A DNA stretch of 64,000 bases from Rhizodiscina lignyota (lineage: Eukaryota). The position numbers and the translations under genes are program-made. This document shows, piece after piece, positions 38,455-46,870 of this stretch (positions are counted from its first letter, which is position 1; each line of letters begins with the position of its first letter). The notes beneath the pieces were generated by a model. It saw only the letters and a list, made by a program, of their open reading frames with translations, had not been told where the DNA came from and did no database searches. The stretch lies in NCBI GenBank assembly GCA_010015805.1, contig ML978127.1, positions 1,364,001 through 1,428,000 of the forward strand, written 5' to 3'.

Positions 38455-41400
38455 CTAAGAGAGGTGGAAAGCACCCTGACCCTCCTTGATAGCGACATCG
38501 AGCTTCATGCGCATGGCGTCAAGAGTGCTGTAGTCTGGCAACTTGAGATAGTTGACACACGTCATGACCGAAGGGAGGTAGTCATCAGAGGTGTATGGAG
38601 GCTCGGATGGTTTGCACACGACAGTGAACATTGGGGTCAGCGCTTTGAAGCCTGCAGAACAATCAGTAAAGTATCGGATAGTCGTTTTAGTAAGGGTAAC
38701 GTACCTCCGATTGGCAGCTTTGGACTACCGGTGACGAATTGCAAGAAATTGCGGCGTTGCTGGGGGTCCATGTCGCTCATGACCGTGAGCAAGTTGCGGA
38801 CGCTCTTGCTGTCGAGGTTGAAGCCATGATCGGCCTTGATCGAGTCCATAAGAGCTGGAGGATGCGTTAGTAGATGACCTAAAAGATGCCACAGATTGTG
38901 AAACTTACTTTCCAACGACCAGTCCTCGTCCACGCGGCCAAACAGCATGACAAGCTCCTCCGGGGTGAATGCGCGCACAGCCGCGTATGGGAATACCAAA
39001 CCAAAGCCCTCCTTGAAGCTTTCAATCTGCTTCTTGACACCCTTGCCAAGCGTCATGTCGAGCACGGTATTAACGTACTCGCACACATTGTCCATGGTGA
39101 CGTTGACGTTCGCACCGTTCGGAACCAGCTCGACACTCGGATAGCCGGGGAGCGTAAAGTCAAGAGCCAAGTCCTCAACCTTAGCTCCATCGATTTCGAT
39201 ATCCTGGATGTCGCTAACTTTCTGTGCTGCTGAGAGCTTGGGATTCTCATCGATGCGCTTTTTGGCGGAAGCAAAGCGCTTCACAACCTTCAAGCTGTTG
39301 GCCAGGTCCGCATCGACGCTACGGACTGCACCGAGGCTGGGGGTAACGCCACCAGTAGCTTCAGTATTAGCAATCCGGAAGAAGGTCGGGTTGAAGCTGA
39401 CGTCGATGATACGGGAGTCGAGCATGCTACGAGCGACAAACTTGCCGAGGATGCGGAAGAGGTGCAGGATCTTCTTGCCATTCTCCGAAATCGCCTGATC
39501 ATCACTCATCGGGGCAGGGAAGAGACCACCTTTGCCAAAGGCGTAATCATCGGCGTCGTTGGAATCATTCTCACGCCAGAGCTTCAGCTTCTTCTTCGAG
39601 AACTCCTTGCTGACAGTGCTGTAGAACTCGAGTGTTGGGCCGAGACCTGTGCCAACTTCCTCAAAGTACTCGACTTCAAGAATAGAAGGCGATGAGCCGT
39701 ACAGCTCCATGACCTTGACAGCTGATTCAAGGATCCTCGTGCGCGAGATGCGAACCTTCTGTCTCTGAAGCCTACCCAAGAAAGGACGCTCATCGCGATG
39801 GCGGTGGCGAGAATCACCATTCGAATCCTGGGCATTCTGCCAACGCGTCATGCTCCTGCTATAGCCGAAGCTCGTGCTCTGGAGGAACAAGTGGCGCGTC
39901 TCGAAGGGGAACAAGAAAGGGTAGAAGCGTGCGAGATCCTCGCTCCAGCTTGGAAGGCAGTTGCTCGCGACAATCAACGGCTCCTCCATTTGGCGGTTAA
40001 GCTTGGCCGTCAGCTTGGTATTGACGAACTGCGAAAGTGGCTCTGCATTCAACTTGATTGTGGAATGATGATCGGTCAGGACGTCATCGATATTGGAGTT
40101 CAGGCCATGAAGAATGCTCAAGAGACGGAGAATTCCGGAAGTTGTTGGGTTCTTGTCGAGAGAGGCTGGCAGACCAGTCGTGGGTGAGAGTACTGTCTCC
40201 GGAGGTGGCGAAAGAGCGGATGACTCTGTTGGCGGAGGACCAGGCACTCGCTTAAACTTGATAGTGTGCACTGCTTGCCAAATGTTGCGTGCAGAGACCT
40301 CGCCAGGTTGAGTCGGGTTGAAGTGGACTGCTCGGTAGATAGTAGTCTCGTTGTTGATCGGCTGGTCATTGACGCTGAACTCGAGGTGCCAATCCTGTGG
40401 AACTGCCTGGATTGCGGCAGCATAGGACATCGCACGAGACGAAGCGGTTGGAGTGCTCAGAGCTTGTTGCGTTGGAGTCGGCTTAGATGAGCCTGGCTTG
40501 GATGCAGGAGCACCAGATAGAGGCGTTGCGATACGTGTACCGTCTTCTTTACGCGCCGTGACTTTGCCTGTAGGCGCGACCTCCATGTTGACAGCATCCG
40601 GGTCTGGCTCATCCTCGTCCATCTCATCTTCAAGATCGTCAACAATAGCATCCAGCGCTCCGTCGTCAAGACTATCGTCAGCATCAGTAAGTTTAGCCTC
40701 GTCCGCACACTCTAAGGTGTCTTCTGTCTCTTCAGCTGGTGGAGGCGGTGGAGGCAATGGAATATCTTTCTTCTCCTCACGCTTTCGCCTGGATGACTTC
40801 CGGGGTGTTTCCTGCTTCGTCTTAGGCGTCGAAGCGCTCTCTTGCTCCGACTTGGCAGGAGGTTTTGCTCGTGAGCCACGCTTTAGAATAGTCCGATCTG
40901 CGAGATCACCTGGAGCAGGCGCGAAAGGTGGTGGAATCGGCAAGCGGTGGCGGCCAGAGTCACCACGGCCACCAAATGCAGCGGCATACGCAGCCATCGC
41001 ACTCGCCATGTCTCCCCGTGACTTCGAACCACGAGGACGCTCGGCGAGGCTGATACGCGGGCGGAGATAGTCATCCAGGGCCTTGAAAGTCGCAATCGCA
41101 TGGATCGAAACCATTATGTTGCGATAGGTGACAGGAATTCCAGAGTCTTCATCAGCGTTCAGCTTAAGACGAAGTTGCTTCGCTAGCATGGATGCGGCAC
41201 TACCACGACCAGTGTCAAAGGAGTTTGAATGCACTGTGATGACTTCAAAGTGTTCTGCTCGGCTCAACATATCCTGCAACTTGTGCACGAGAATACTGAA
41301 AGGCGTGGAAGGCGATGCAGAAGTGGAGGTTCGCTGCTTAGTCTCTGTTCCTGGACCCATGAATGCTGCCAGAAAGGCGGATCGTGCATTGATGCTGGCC

Positions 41401-44222
41401 TGAGACGTTTCATCAGAGAATACGTCAAGGAGGATTTGGACGACGTCAGAGGTGAGAAGCTCGTAGCTCGTAACGCTGTCTAGAGCATCACCATCGAAGT
41501 ACCTAGCAAGACGCACGAACAGATCTCCATGCTCTCCCTGTGGATCTTCGAGATAGGATCGCCGAATCTCTTGAGCAAGCGTCTTTAGATCATCGAGTGT
41601 CGAAGCAGCCTTCTTCCTCATTGCCTTGCTCTCATCATTCTCATGCGCCTCGAGGAATTGCTTTGCCTGGAGAGTGATGAGGTCGTCAATGTCTGGCAGC
41701 TCAGGATTTGGCGCGAAACGAGGCTGGTCCCCTGAAGACGAAGAGTCAGAATCCGATTGGTCGCGACCATGAGAATTCTCGTCGTTCTCATCATTGTCGT
41801 CATCTGAGCCGTCCTCATCGTCGTCATCATCCAAGTCGTCGATGACAACGTCCTGATCCATGTCGTGGTCTTCAGCAGAGCTGTTGGTGTCTCGGCCAGT
41901 GCTATGGGGTCTAGCAGACTCAATCGTTACAACTTTGGATGCCTTGGATTTGCTCGGCTTTTCTTCAAGCTGCTTGCATGGACGATCCGCAAGCTTTCGA
42001 ATTTCGGAGATCACACCTTCACGATAGAATTGATAGCGATAGATGGACTCCAATCGTTTGAGCAGAAGCTCAGCAGCCTGGAGAGCAAACGTGACTAAGG
42101 TAGGATGATCTTGCTGAGAGAGAATTGATGCGAGATACGAGGCGTAGGGCACCGTTCGGAGAGCATCCTCAAGGATATCGACGTCGAGGTTGCTAAGCAT
42201 CTTGAGCTGAGCGGTGAGAACCTTTTGACGAACGTTAAGATTGACCGTTGAAGAATAGGCATCTGTAAGAGTGGGAAGAAGAATGATGGCGAAGCGCTTG
42301 ACCTCTTCCCGGCACTCCTTGAGCAGCTCGACTTTCTTCTCGTTCGGCATCTTGTGTGTTCGGCTCACGAGAGCCAAATAATCGGGGCCTGGATAGCCAG
42401 CGTCAAGAATGTTGTCGAGGTACGTCAACCCATCACGCTGAACGCTGGGAAGCAGCTCACAGATCACATTGAGTGTCTCGAAGATCTGCTCCCGTGGGCG
42501 ATGAATGAGCGCCTGCATGATGACCACACTGTCAATCTTGTTTGCAATATCCTCGTCACCGCTTGGAGGAGACACGCCAGTTAAGATCTGGTAGAGAGTG
42601 TCGACAACGTCCATCTTGAAGAGTTCAACAGTGAGCTTAGGACTCGCACGAGCGATGATCGAGAGCACACGTAGGAACTGAGTGTGGATGTTTGGCCCGA
42701 TGAGATTCGTTGTGCCAGGAAGCAAGAGGCGTAAGATGGCCCGCAGCATGTCAGCGTTGATAAGGTCCTCGATCTTGTCGTCCTGATACTTGAAGCTCTC
42801 GACGATACGAGAAACGCATAGGCAACCTTGCTCGAGAACTTTCTGGTCGGCGTTGCTAAGCACATTCAGTAGTATTGGCATGACCTCGCGCACAACAGGA
42901 AACGAGTCATCGGGAATATTCCGACAGCAGTTTGCTGCGGTTGTGACTGCGGTACGCTGTGTGCTTGTGTGGAAGAAGTCGAGGTAGTTCAGACAAGCCG
43001 TGAGACCACCTTCACGAACAATGGAGCCAGGGAATTCGACGGAAATTTTCTCAAGGGTGCTTAGAGCCTGCTCCGCAAGATCGATGAAGTCAATTTCGAG
43101 AAGCTTCTGGCAAAGAATCGGTACCGCTCCACCGTAGACAACGTTTGCTGTAGATGCAGGAAGGGCCTCCATGAGATTGGCGAGGCATCGGCAAGCGAGG
43201 AGCATGATCTCTGGGTTTCCACCGCCGAAGTCGTTACCTTGCATCAATGACACAAGCTCCTTGACATACTGGTCTGGATGGAAGTGACCAGTCAGGTTGT
43301 CCTCATTCGAAACTAGAAGAACTTCAGAAAGCTCTTGAAGAGCAATTAGCTGCACTGAAGGATCGTCTTTCTGTTTCAGATTCTCGAGGATGTTGCGTAG
43401 GCGGCTCGAAACACCAGTCATCATGCCAGTGAGCGCTCTCAATGTGGAGGACATGGAGCCCAAGGGGCCACCGTGTGCGTGACGGCCAAGATAGCCACCA
43501 CTGAATGGACCTTCATCATCGTCGTCATCTTCATCAGCCGGAGGATATCGTGGTGCACTCTCTCCGTCATCGTCGTCATCATCCAAGTTCAAGCGTCCGT
43601 GACTGTGCTCCCGATTGCTCGGATCGCCACCCTCTTCCTTGACCGGAGTGTCATCCTCATGCTTTGTACCTTTCCTTGTGCGGCGCGATGAGGTCGAACG
43701 AGAGTGTGAATGAGGAGTGTCATCTGAACGCGTTAGATCTCGCTTGAATTTTCGGACGAAGGACGCACCTGAAGAGCTCTTCTTGCTCTTCTGCTTCTTG
43801 CGTGACGCTGGGGCAGTTGAAGCGAGTGGACCGTGGGCAGAGGTTTCATCAGAGATGTCTCCCGACGGACTAGTATCATTAGCATGGCTGGTGGCCACAC
43901 CAGTATCGTCGTCATACCCAGCACTTGACATTGCCGCAGTGACTTTGTTCTTTCCTCGTCGACGCGAGGAAGCCGGTGCAAGATCGGTAGATGGTGGGGC
44001 AGGAGGTGGCGGAGCGTCGAACTTTGTGCGTTTGGCTCGTTGACGCGGGGGGACTTCAGGTGTTGGCGGAGACTGCTCTGGACTTGGCTCTCTAGCCTTG
44101 CGTTTGCGGTTATGGGGTGGCGGAGTAGGAGGTGGAGGAGGTATATCTGGCGGGACCGTCGTGTTTGAGGTCGACTGGCCTGCAGAGATCCTCGCAGTCG
44201 AGCGAGTTACTCTTCGCGACAT
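38455..44222 (-). CDS. UFD4: HECT E3 ubiquitin ligase Ufd4/TRIP12
   Basis: ARM-repeat region ([23 protein letters not shown]), [34 protein letters not shown], and catalytic [20 protein letters not shown]. Introns 43870-43917, 43724-43768, 38855-38908 and 38652-38704. Confidence 0.93.
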
Positions 44223-45623
44223 TAGAGACTGTGATATGTGAAATAATGTGTGATGCAAGTGCGAAGTGCGGGTTGAGAAACGAACAGTGTGGGAGGTCGA
44301 GGTTGGAGCTTTGGAAAGAATGGGCAGTGAGTTCTGATGCTTGTTTGATGTGTGCAGTGTGGGTTGTTTGGTGGAGGAGGAAGAGGCAGAAAAGAGGACT
44401 GAAGTAGGCGAGCTGCAGGGTGGTTTGTGCGTGGTGTCGGCGTACCTTTGGGAAGGTGTTGAGTTGTGTCGAGAGAAGGCGTTTGCAGACATTCCCCCGC
44501 GGCAGCTGCACAGCACGTCACCACGAGAGCGCCATCAGCGCCTGCCTGAGGTCTCTAGCAAGTGCTGTGGAGAGGAGACGCAAGAGCGATGCTGCGGAGG
44601 CGATGACGGTGTCTGCGTCTCTGCTGCTGCACCATTCACTCGCGCTGTCGGGGTGAGCGCCTCGACGTACAGCGGAGGTACGAGGAGGGGGTACTTCAGG
44701 CGGGCCCGTTCGAGTGGAGCGGGAGATGCAGGACTACACGCTTCGCACTTCACAGGACGAGAGTCGACGGTGTTGCAGACGTTGCGACGGGCTCTATCCG
44801 CGCGCCTCTGCTTGAGGGGGAGTGTACTGGCAGGTGAGGTTGAAGTAGAGAGCTTTTGGAGCCGCGCCGCCAGCTCATGGCAAAAGTCACCAGTGTACCG
44901 CTCGTTACAAAGCCTCGCGACCACGATTAATCACGGCACTGCCCCTACGCTGGCCATCGTTCAGCGCAGAGATAGCCGAGAATGAGGAGCTGTCGGAATT
45001 AATCTCTCCAATTACGCCCAGTCCAGCGGCTTGCAGATCGAATCGCCTATTAATTCGTCGTCGTACCGCATATATATCGCCGTGACGCTGCTCCAACCAC
45101 CAGCGCAGAAGCGCCAATGGCGTAGTTCCGCATTCGTCTGACTTTACCACTGCGCAGATACAAGCCAGACCTTGCATGCCTTTTCTTTTGGCCCTGCCTT
45201 TGGACACGTGCCCTGCATAGGAGGTACAATCACTTACGACATCTCACCTCCTAAGAGTTCGGAGCCATCCGCGCCGCTGCCAGCTGCTGGTGCCGAATCT
45301 TTCAACTCCCTCTCCACACACGCCGCTATATTACAAACATACCGGCCGGCGCCCTCCTCAATTGACTCACTCACCCTCCCTCAACCCATCTTCCAAAGTC
45401 TCCTTTAAAGGAGACACCGCCTTGAGTGTGAGGCACCCAGCCTCACGCAGACAAATCCGTCTCTCAGCGGTCTCGCCCCAGCCCCGCCAATCACCCCGCG
45501 AATTTGCTCTCTAAGCTCCCACAACTCCCGCAAAACATTTCCATCGACCCGAAAGAGCCTTTCTTCCCATCTGCTCGCTCTCTTGAGACTCCTCCTAGAC
45601 ATCTCGAGACACTCCACCCAGCA

Positions 45624-45857
45624 CTGGCAGCGTTCAAGACACCAATCCGGTGTTTGCGCCGCGGTATCTCCGACACGACCGCGGTGACTGGTTTGGCAAG
45701 GCAGAAACGTCAGATATTTGTTTTAGGAGGCACGCGCCTAAGACAGACCACATTTCAACGGAAAGAGGACACTTGGAACGTTGCACAGCGATATATCGGC
45801 TCTTATCCTCCTCCATCCTCCGGCATCGATCCCAATTCCTCATACGCACCTCTCACA
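45624..45857 (+). CDS. Putative CUG-initiated 78-aa N-terminal extension of NMNAT (mitochondrial presequence-like)
   Basis: In-frame, stop-free and AUG-free. CTG lies in the context gcaCTGg and gives MAAFKTPIRCLRRGIS... Confidence 0.55.
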
Positions 45858-46870
45858 ATGGACAAGACTCAACAACCCCCTGGCTACACATTTCCCGACC
45901 GCAAGCTGAAGAGGAAACTCTCAAGCCCTACGAGGATACCACTTGTCTTGGTAGCATGCGGCAGGTATGGTTTACACCATCAATTGACATGCTCATTTGC
46001 TTTCCTTCTGGACTTGAGACACTAACATGCTTATCTACGACAGTTTCTCCCCCATCACCTACCTCCACATGCGCCTCTTCGAAGTCGCTCGCGACTGGAC
46101 GAAATTCAACACCGACTATGAAGTCGTCGGCTGCTTCCTCTCACCCGTCGGCGACAAGTACGTCAAGGCCGGCCTGGCCAGCGCTCCACACCGATTAAAC
46201 ATGTGTGAGCTAGCAACCCGCGACTCAGAGATGATCGACGTGGATCCGTGGGAGGCCTACATGAAGGAGTACCAGCCCACAGCTATTGTGCTAGATCATT
46301 TCGACTACGAGATAAACGAGAAGATTGGTGGCATCGAGACGGGCGAGGGGCAGCAGAAGGCCAAGGCAAGGATAGCGCTGCTCGCGGGCGCGGATTTGAT
46401 CCAGACGTTCTCTGCTCCGGGGGTCTGGTCGGAGAAGGATTTGGATCATATCTTGAATAATTATAAGATATTTGCTGTTGAGCGGTAAGTTGGTTCACCG
46501 GCAGATGCACGTGCTCCAGTTTGGCTAACCATGATTCGCAGGGCGGGTACGGACATTGATGATGCCCTCGCGACACTTGGCCAGAAGTTCAAGGACAACA
46601 TTTACGTTGTGCACCAACTGATTCAGAACGACGTGTCGTCAACGAAGATCAGACTGTTTTTGAAGCGAGACATGAGCGTGCGATATCTGATTCCTCAGCC
46701 TGTCATACAGTACATCGACGGTAAGCCATCGACAACTTCATCATTGCGAGCTGCACACTGATCGATTCTTAGAGCATGGCTTGTACGGCGACGACGGCAC
46801 CAGCTCCGTGCACGACAAGGAGAAAGGCAAGGCCATAGAACCGGCCAGCAGCTCCAGCAACGGGCCCTGA
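45858..46870 (+). CDS. NMA1: Nicotinamide/nicotinate mononucleotide adenylyltransferase (NMNAT; Nma1/Nma2 family), AUG-initiated form
   Basis: Exons 45858-45964, 46044-46484, 46542-46720 and 46773-46870. Motifs LVACGSFSPITYLH, SPVGDKY, LLAGADL and NDVSSTKIRLFL. Confidence 0.92.

Follow-up and report, generated by a model that had tools for sequence, protein, structure and literature searches.

A conserved, AUG-free upstream reading frame of the NMNAT gene of Rhizodiscina lignyota may encode a mitochondrial isoform that starts at a near-cognate codon

In yeast, GRS1 and ALA1 give rise to mitochondrial isoforms from upstream near-cognate codons and to cytosolic isoforms from an AUG. Mitochondria have to charge tRNAs for themselves, but it is thought that they can import NAD, and budding yeast (which has the enzymes Nma1 and Nma2 and the carriers Ndt1 and Ndt2) is thought to import NAD rather than to make it in the matrix. 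The textbook view of where fungi make NAD comes from budding yeast. Here, we describe the gene for nicotinamide mononucleotide adenylyltransferase (NMNAT) in 64,000 nucleotides of the genome of the fungus Rhizodiscina lignyota (contig ML978127.1, positions 1,364,001 to 1,428,000 of the forward strand). We call this whole stretch the window, and coordinates are counted from its first letter. We propose that this one gene yields two isoforms from a leader that lacks AUG codons, with the longer isoform being started at a near-cognate codon and carrying a mitochondrial presequence. Judging from sequence comparisons, we give this proposal a probability of roughly 0.6.

The closest described systems are of three kinds. 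In Cryptococcus, the mitochondrial isoforms of the leucyl- and arginyl-tRNA synthetases (LeuRS and ArgRS) are started at ACG or AUU (the LeuRS start is gccACGAUU), and weak AUGs and near-cognate codons replace each other among fungi in aminoacyl-tRNA synthetase (aaRS) genes (PMC7049704). In Neurospora crassa, cpc-1 has a conserved N-terminal extension with a non-AUG start; it is described as Pezizomycotina-wide, with a ratio of nonsynonymous to synonymous substitution rates (dN/dS) of 0.285 (PMC5487733). And humans have a mitochondrial NMNAT paralog, NMNAT3, which may make or buffer NAD and nicotinamide mononucleotide (NMN) in the matrix; a review points to its first 25 residues (PMC12470169). 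In a full-text literature search, which most subscription journals lie outside, we came across no paper that describes a mitochondrial isoform of a fungal NMNAT or alternative initiation of its translation.

The NMNAT gene of the window is on the plus strand and has four exons (45858..45964, 46044..46484, 46542..46720, and 46773..46870, with the stop codon at 46868-46870). Its spliced translation is exactly the public 274-amino-acid protein P0004 (100% identity), which is a Rhizodiscina lignyota protein named nucleotidylyl transferase / NMNAT; the same search gave 604 relatives. Among public sequencing runs, the one that matched this stretch is a DNA assembly, which covers it with one near-identical contig and may be where the window itself came from. 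The host is a Dothideomycete. Exon 2 encodes the cytidylyltransferase-like core (PF01467; E = 7.8e-11, 42.8 bits, with a cutoff of 21), and the protein contains GSFSPITYLH, which we take to be the nucleotide-binding motif. From its domain, its orthology to named fungal NMNATs, and its intact gene model, we identify the gene as an NMNAT and an ortholog of Nma1/Nma2. The annotated AUG (45858-45860) is in a strong context (cacaATGg, with A at -3 and G at +4). A previous reading of this stretch (the earlier note) had argued that gene callers would overlook an extension upstream of this codon, and the public model does begin here.

The NMNAT frame runs without a stop for 142 codons before the annotated AUG (45432..45857) and is closed by a TGA at 45429-45431. 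In the other two frames, the open stretches are 39 and 87 codons long. We estimate that, at the given base composition, the chance of 142 open codons is roughly 1%. The leader is also free of ATGs, in any frame: the last one before the NMNAT AUG is at 45176, and the 681 nucleotides between them (45177..45857) make up the longest ATG-free gap in the window (of 2,362 gaps when both strands are counted; the runner-up has 494 nucleotides). From composition, about 5-6.5 ATGs would be expected in 681 nucleotides, and the probability of finding none is 0.0015-0.006. Both the open frame and the lack of ATGs within it had been pointed out in the earlier note, and both are confirmed on the sequence. In codon usage, the extension has a log-odds score of +0.081 in the NMNAT frame (frame 0), which is the best of the three frames and lies at about the 5th percentile of true coding windows; this score partly re-expresses the lack of stops, and we give it little weight.

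The extension is conserved as protein. The query for a HMMER search of 1.84 billion representatives was the 177 amino acids encoded by the upstream frame and exon 1, and five proteins matched. The closest relatives, P0223 (E = 1.4e-20) and P0224 (E = 9e-20), align to residues 21-177 and 15-177 of the query, respectively, with 42-45% identity. Both end at the same exon-1 boundary, and both are singletons on contigs of ~1.4 kb. The extension alone scored 30.8 bits with P0223 and 36.7 bits with P0224, as compared with a maximum of 10.5 bits in 500 shuffles. When the extension was divided at an in-frame CTG at 45624, the 78 residues after the CTG scored 27.6 and 26.2 bits, and the 64 residues before it scored 0.3 and 5.9 bits. 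Because the similarity falls downstream, not upstream, of the CTG, we place the beginning of the conserved coding part at about this codon. The window, P0223, and P0224 all have Leu-Ala-Ala at the CTG (L65-A66-A67 of the query), and all three have RxIGSYP, which lies 20 residues before the canonical Met. A repeat protein search with the alignment of these three sequences found no further relatives, and a search of the ESM Atlas with the extension gave no usable match. Taken with the survey of other loci described below, these comparisons make it very likely that the conserved upstream extension is translated.

The earlier note had treated the leader as a feature of a single gene. That part of its account does not hold, and the open frame itself proves to recur across the clade. 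In the protein search, annotated orthologs start at the canonical Met, and among the 120 matches listed, five have long basic N-terminal extensions (P0036, P0074, P0089, P0094, and P0109); all five are open reading frame (ORF) calls on contigs. Using an alignment of 43 NMNATs, we then searched contigs from metagenomes; this gave 441 matching stretches, of which 365 encode relatives, and we kept 80 loci. These form 60 clusters besides the window. For each cluster, the open length before the canonical AUG was taken for all three frames, counted from a conserved anchor (the P of Y-x-F-P); 18 clusters were dropped because they had no upstream sequence, were censored by the end of the contig, or had no AUG within 60 codons. 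Frame 0 was the longest of the three in 34 of the 42 usable clusters (binomial p = 3e-10, which overstates the independence of the clusters because they are phylogenetically related). The median open length was 90 codons for frame 0 versus 21.5 and 37 for the other frames. If the yeast-like and basidiomycete-like clusters are set aside, then frame 0 was the longest in 31 of 38. Noncoding sequence would not be expected to hold a frame open at these distances.

Two other properties of these leaders bear on how they would be used. First, in the 210 nucleotides before the proximal AUG, the 42 clusters have 25 in-frame ATGs (~21 expected) and just 6 out-of-frame ATGs (~42 expected). By our reading of these counts, out-of-frame ATGs are depleted, as they would have to be for leaky scanning from one start to the next. 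Second, the frame-0 translations of the extensions are richer in arginine and lysine than the translations of the other two frames (0.142 versus 0.112 and 0.105), are poorer in aspartate and glutamate (0.028 versus 0.05), and are also richer in serine and threonine (n = 30; p ~1e-3 to 1e-4 for the charged residues).

The other lineages also indicate how such extensions could be started. About 15 clusters have an in-frame AUG that is 67-99 codons upstream of the proximal AUG, a range that includes the 78 codons from CTG 45624 to the annotated AUG in the window. The closest named relative of these clusters is Chrysothrix or, more distantly, Aspergillus or Hypocenomyce, and most of the AUG-started peptides open with segments that are free of acidic residues and rich in arginine, serine, and leucine. 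In 17 of 17 loci, the upstream in-frame AUG has a pyrimidine at -3 and lacks a G at +4, while the downstream AUG of the same loci has a purine at -3 in 14 cases and a G at +4 in 15 cases. In three Mycosphaerellales-like loci (L023, L029, and L030) and two Elsinoe-like loci (L001 and L013), the upstream edge of the conserved peptide instead has an in-frame g(c/t)cACGCTGcc. In L029 and L030, this motif is ~88 and 86 codons upstream of the anchor, respectively, and there is an in-frame stop just 4 codons 5' of the ACG-CTG, so initiation in these two loci would be pinned to a non-AUG codon. We also observed that these five loci, which are otherwise diverged, have the slightly longer motif g(c/t)cACGCTGcc(t/g)tt in common.

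Some gene models and contigs bear on the same question. The NCBI models from Aureobasidium (P0143, P0148, and P0157) are labeled as partial and include an extension without a Met, and a Chrysothrix model (P0181) has an AUG-started extension. Two contigs without the intron that their nearest relatives have reach 5' of the ACG-CTG (L023) or of the upstream AUG (L049). These contigs hint that the upstream starts lie within the mRNAs of the two loci; the alternative is that the intron was lost.

In the window, the best candidate for a non-AUG start is the CTG at 45624..45626. It is in the NMNAT frame and its context is ccagcaCTGg, so the purine at -3 and the G at +4 reported in the earlier note are both present (each is a G). 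When P0223 and P0224 are compared with the window as protein, this codon sits at about the upstream limit of conservation, and, going from 5' to 3', it is the first near-cognate codon whose use would give an N-terminus that is basic, acid-poor, and amphiphilic. Initiation at the CTG would yield a 78-codon extension (45624..45857), which, from its composition and its retention in P0223 and P0224, we annotate as a putative mitochondrial presequence and linker. The first 40 residues include 9 lysines or arginines and one acidic residue, and the maximum hydrophobic moment is 0.87; the first 47 residues include 11 lysines or arginines and one acidic residue (D17), just as the earlier note had it. 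Near the end of the extension is R-Y-I-G-S-Y-P (45789..45809), in which every residue except the first Y is shared by the window, P0223, and P0224. Going by the usual rules for the mitochondrial processing peptidase, this may be a cleavage site, with R at -2 or -3. We judged presequences by heuristics, namely charge, the run without acidic residues, the hydrophobic moment, and composition controlled by frame, and on these grounds a mitochondrial destination is likely.

Other lineages have motifs of their own shortly before the Met. P0143, P0148, P0157, L001, L013, and L014 have Y-H/N-T-L-S-N/G-L/I at 10-20 residues before the Met, with R at -2 or -3. In Chrysothrix-like loci, the equivalent place is taken by R-P-F-T-A-A-D-V, and the clade of the window has R-x-I-G-S-Y-P. 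These motifs could be lineage-specific cleavage sites of presequences.

We propose the following mechanism. Ribosomes would scan a long AUG-free leader from a transcript start upstream of 45624. A minority of them would start at a near-cognate codon, most probably CUG 45624, and would make a form that is ~78 residues longer, whose basic and acid-poor N-terminus would act as a mitochondrial presequence. After import, the precursor might be cleaved near R-Y-I-G-S-Y-P. The remaining ribosomes would meet no other AUG before the strong AUG at 45858 and would make the 274-amino-acid nuclear/cytosolic enzyme. Within the matrix, the longer form could make NAD, or nicotinic acid adenine dinucleotide (NaAD), from imported mononucleotide and ATP, or it could buffer NAD and NMN by the reverse reaction.

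Several results weigh against this proposal, and we consider them together with the rival explanations, beginning with the choice of the start codon. There are 17 in-frame near-cognate codons upstream of AUG 45858. The extension could be translated from one or several of the others, such as TTG 45504 or ATT 45537 upstream of the CTG or ACG 45675, GTG 45684, or TTG 45693 downstream of it; these last three have a G at -3 and also yield basic N-termini. Frame 0 is also open for the 64 codons 5' of the CTG and scores as weakly coding-like there, and the ORFs of P0223 and P0224 extend upstream by over 150 additional codons, so initiation might take place at another position. In cpc-1, initiation appeared to be spread across several near-cognate codons, and with a cpc-1 reporter, the use of non-AUG starts in vivo can be under 1% of that of AUG (PMC5487733). 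On the other hand, the similarity to P0223 and P0224 before the CTG is not significant (the 0.3 and 5.9 bits given above), starts at 45504-45543 would put 3-4 acidic residues in the first 30, and the Leu-Ala-Ala at the CTG is invariant. Overall, we consider CUG 45624 to be plausible as the main start, and it is rather unlikely that other near-cognate codons take its place.

A hidden Markov model (HMM) of eight extensions of the Elsinoe, Dothideales, and Aureobasidium types gave the extension of the window a score of -0.1, and 787 of 1,000 shuffles scored as well, so homology of the start sites across lineages is unsupported. A MAFFT alignment of 31 extensions was inconsistent around the starts. 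A match that we had noticed by eye (AFKTP/AFKVP) is not supported by the HMM test. The extension of the window is, by these comparisons, unlike those of other lineages, as expected for fast-evolving presequences. Constraint on the extensions is also weak: within the Mycosphaerellales-like and Elsinoe-like groups that have the ACG-CTG, dN/dS was 0.35-0.67 for the extension, from protein-guided alignments, versus 0.00-0.08 for the adjacent core. An alignment of NMNAT leaders across the Pezizomycotina had been suggested in the earlier note as a check for a conserved open frame, a conserved near-cognate codon, and dN/dS below 1. The open frame was recovered, as were near-cognate codons in some lineages and, for the extensions of other lineages, dN/dS below 1, but the start codons were not found to be homologous across lineages.

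The trait is also less than universal. The signature of a longer frame 0 is missing from 8 of the 42 clusters, including L016 and the Xylariales-like and basidiomycete-like loci, and an Aspergillus-like locus that we dropped as censored (L004) has a stop 15 codons upstream. Given exceptions such as L016 and the Xylariales-like and basidiomycete-like loci, the in-frame extension is, on this survey, common among Pezizomycotina-like loci but not universal. L016 itself is Mycosphaerellales-like and lacks the intron; it has an in-frame stop 24 codons 5' of the AUG, unlike its relatives L023, L029, and L030. This lineage has either lost the extension or makes do with one that is much shorter.

A second rival accepts that the extension is translated but holds that it is not a mitochondrial presequence and is instead a disordered regulatory segment, a degron, or another targeting segment. 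The extension of the window includes an acidic patch (KED) as well as D17, and its frame-0 composition (0.16 arginine or lysine and 0.05 aspartate or glutamate) is hardly unlike that of its frame 1 (0.12 and 0.04), which is another point against our proposal. Three of the AUG-started extensions (L017, L018, and L021) have acidic residues within the first 10, and budding-yeast-like NMNATs carry long N-terminal regions that are not mitochondrial. But across the loci surveyed, the enrichment of basic and hydroxylated residues and the depletion of acidic residues are specific to frame 0, and most of the AUG-started extensions begin with the acid-free segments mentioned above. Furthermore, a weak start followed by a strong one is the layout that has been described for pairs of mitochondrial and cytosolic isoforms (PMC7049704). 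We consider this rival to be unlikely.

Slightly less probable still is that two isoforms arise from alternative transcription start sites (TSSs), with a long mRNA that includes the upstream start and a short mRNA that begins between 45624 and 45858. There are precedents: alternative TSSs are known for CCA1, a dual-targeted gene of yeast (PMC11974929), and some aaRS genes of Cryptococcus have TSSs between their two starts (PMC7049704). Alternative TSSs would not, however, need the out-of-frame ATGs to be depleted (6 versus ~42 expected) or the weak AUG contexts to be followed by strong ones (17 of 17 loci), and leaky scanning predicts both.

As to where transcription begins, residues 6-14 of the far-upstream ORF of P0223 match, in another frame, 45107-45133 of the window (identity at 7 of 9 residues; E = 0.4). 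This match contains a CCAAT at 45114-45118, ~740 nucleotides 5' of the AUG, and what is conserved may be a promoter element instead of coding sequence. If so, then the TSS would lie between about 45120 and 45620, although this is weak evidence. There is also a TATATA at 45071-45076 and a TATATT at 45327-45332.

The remaining rival, that the upstream frame is an untranslated leader that happens to be open in R. lignyota, gains something from the ~1% chance per gene of 142 open codons (which is not negligible genome-wide), from the 87 open codons of frame 2, and from the far-upstream ORF of P0223, part of which seems to overlie the promoter-like CCAAT element (so that long frames open by chance do occur there), but it is quite improbable given that the extension is kept as protein in P0223 and P0224, that the frame result is clade-wide, and that the leader is AUG-free.

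We considered other features of the leader. A stem of 9 base pairs with a loop of 12 nucleotides (45657..45686; arms at 45657-45665 and 45678-45686, with one G-U pair; -16 kcal/mol) lies downstream of the CTG. The earlier note had pointed out this stem. The stem exists, but it is not supported as a meaningful element, because it is no more stable than shuffled sequence: for a 43-nucleotide segment, z was -1.12 and 26 of 200 shuffles folded as well, and for 96 nucleotides, z was -0.08. We reject it as an initiation enhancer and do not count it as functional. A hairpin of 7 base pairs (45637-45655, GACACCA...UGGUGUU) begins 11 nucleotides past the CTG, in a 96-nucleotide region that folds no better than shuffles; it is closer than the 9-bp stem to the spacing that is said to favor weak starts. 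Of the earlier note's account of a dual NMNAT by leaky scanning, the coding-like and conserved extension, the AUG-free leader, and the strong AUG stand, and the 9-bp stem as a meaningful element is not supported.

We also rejected an intron in the leader that would end at the TTTTAG at 45726. Such splicing had been named in the earlier note as something that would overturn the extension, and the alignment with P0223 and P0224 runs straight through that stretch (ARQ and L98 are invariant). And when we compared P0223 and P0224 to positions 44000-46100 with tblastn in search of an upstream exon, each gave one significant high-scoring segment pair, which is in the NMNAT frame, and nothing significant further upstream. 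The minus strand has a long ORF that points away from NMNAT (38637-44534, 1,965 codons from stop to stop); its Met-started protein begins near 44220, so that it shares ~1.6 kb of intergenic sequence with NMNAT.

Where cells make NAD is an open question, and even for mammals, the roles of NMNAT3 and of an NAD importer are disputed (PMC12470169). If the proposal is true, then a matrix step would be added to fungal NAD metabolism, and the choice of start codon would set the balance of two pools and could respond to stress through the stringency of initiation. It would also mean that AUG-only gene models systematically conceal an organellar isoform. More broadly, NAD synthesis inside the mitochondria of filamentous ascomycetes would be implied, and the breadth of the open frame across these fungi adds to the interest. 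We see about an even chance that filamentous ascomycetes in general (Dothideomycetes and Arthoniomycetes-, Lecanoromycetes-, and Eurotiomycetes-like lineages) route some of their single NMNAT to the mitochondria via a weak upstream start, with poor-context AUGs and ACG or CUG turning over, so that NAD would be made or buffered in the matrix by an isoform that is old, widespread, and present in almost no gene models.

How does this locus compare with the known systems? It is most like GRS1, ALA1, and the aaRS genes of Cryptococcus: within one gene, a candidate non-AUG start lies in frame and in a fair context, and a putative basic presequence separates it from a strong AUG. The LeuRS start of Cryptococcus, gccACGAUU, is similar to the gccACGCTG of L023, L029, and L030, with two near-cognate codons in a row in both, and the turnover between weak AUGs and near-cognate codons that has been described for fungal aaRS genes (PMC7049704) is also seen among the NMNAT extensions. 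In contrast to those genes, the client here is an enzyme of NAD synthesis and not a tRNA synthetase, and its longer form is a prediction from sequence. Like cpc-1, whose extension was recognized by the absence of stops, by conserved CUG, AUU, and ACG codons in good contexts, and by dN/dS below 1, NMNAT has an AUG-less in-frame extension (dN/dS is 0.285 for cpc-1 and 0.35-0.67 for the NMNAT extensions of other lineages). The cpc-1 extension (PMC5487733) does not serve as a targeting signal and is intermingled with upstream ORFs, whereas the NMNAT leader has no upstream AUG and some NMNAT lineages use an AUG for the extension. Unlike human NMNAT3, which is a separate gene with its own AUG (PMC12470169), the fungal NMNAT would serve both compartments from one gene with two start codons. 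With Nma1 and Nma2, it shares the orthologous PF01467 core and the N-terminal Y-x-F-P...GSFSP, but yeast-like loci have long, acidic, AUG-started N-terminal regions (of the ADLEEVPHGI type) that bear no relation to the basic extensions. The mechanism, dual isoforms by leaky scanning, is thus already known; what is new is the client enzyme.

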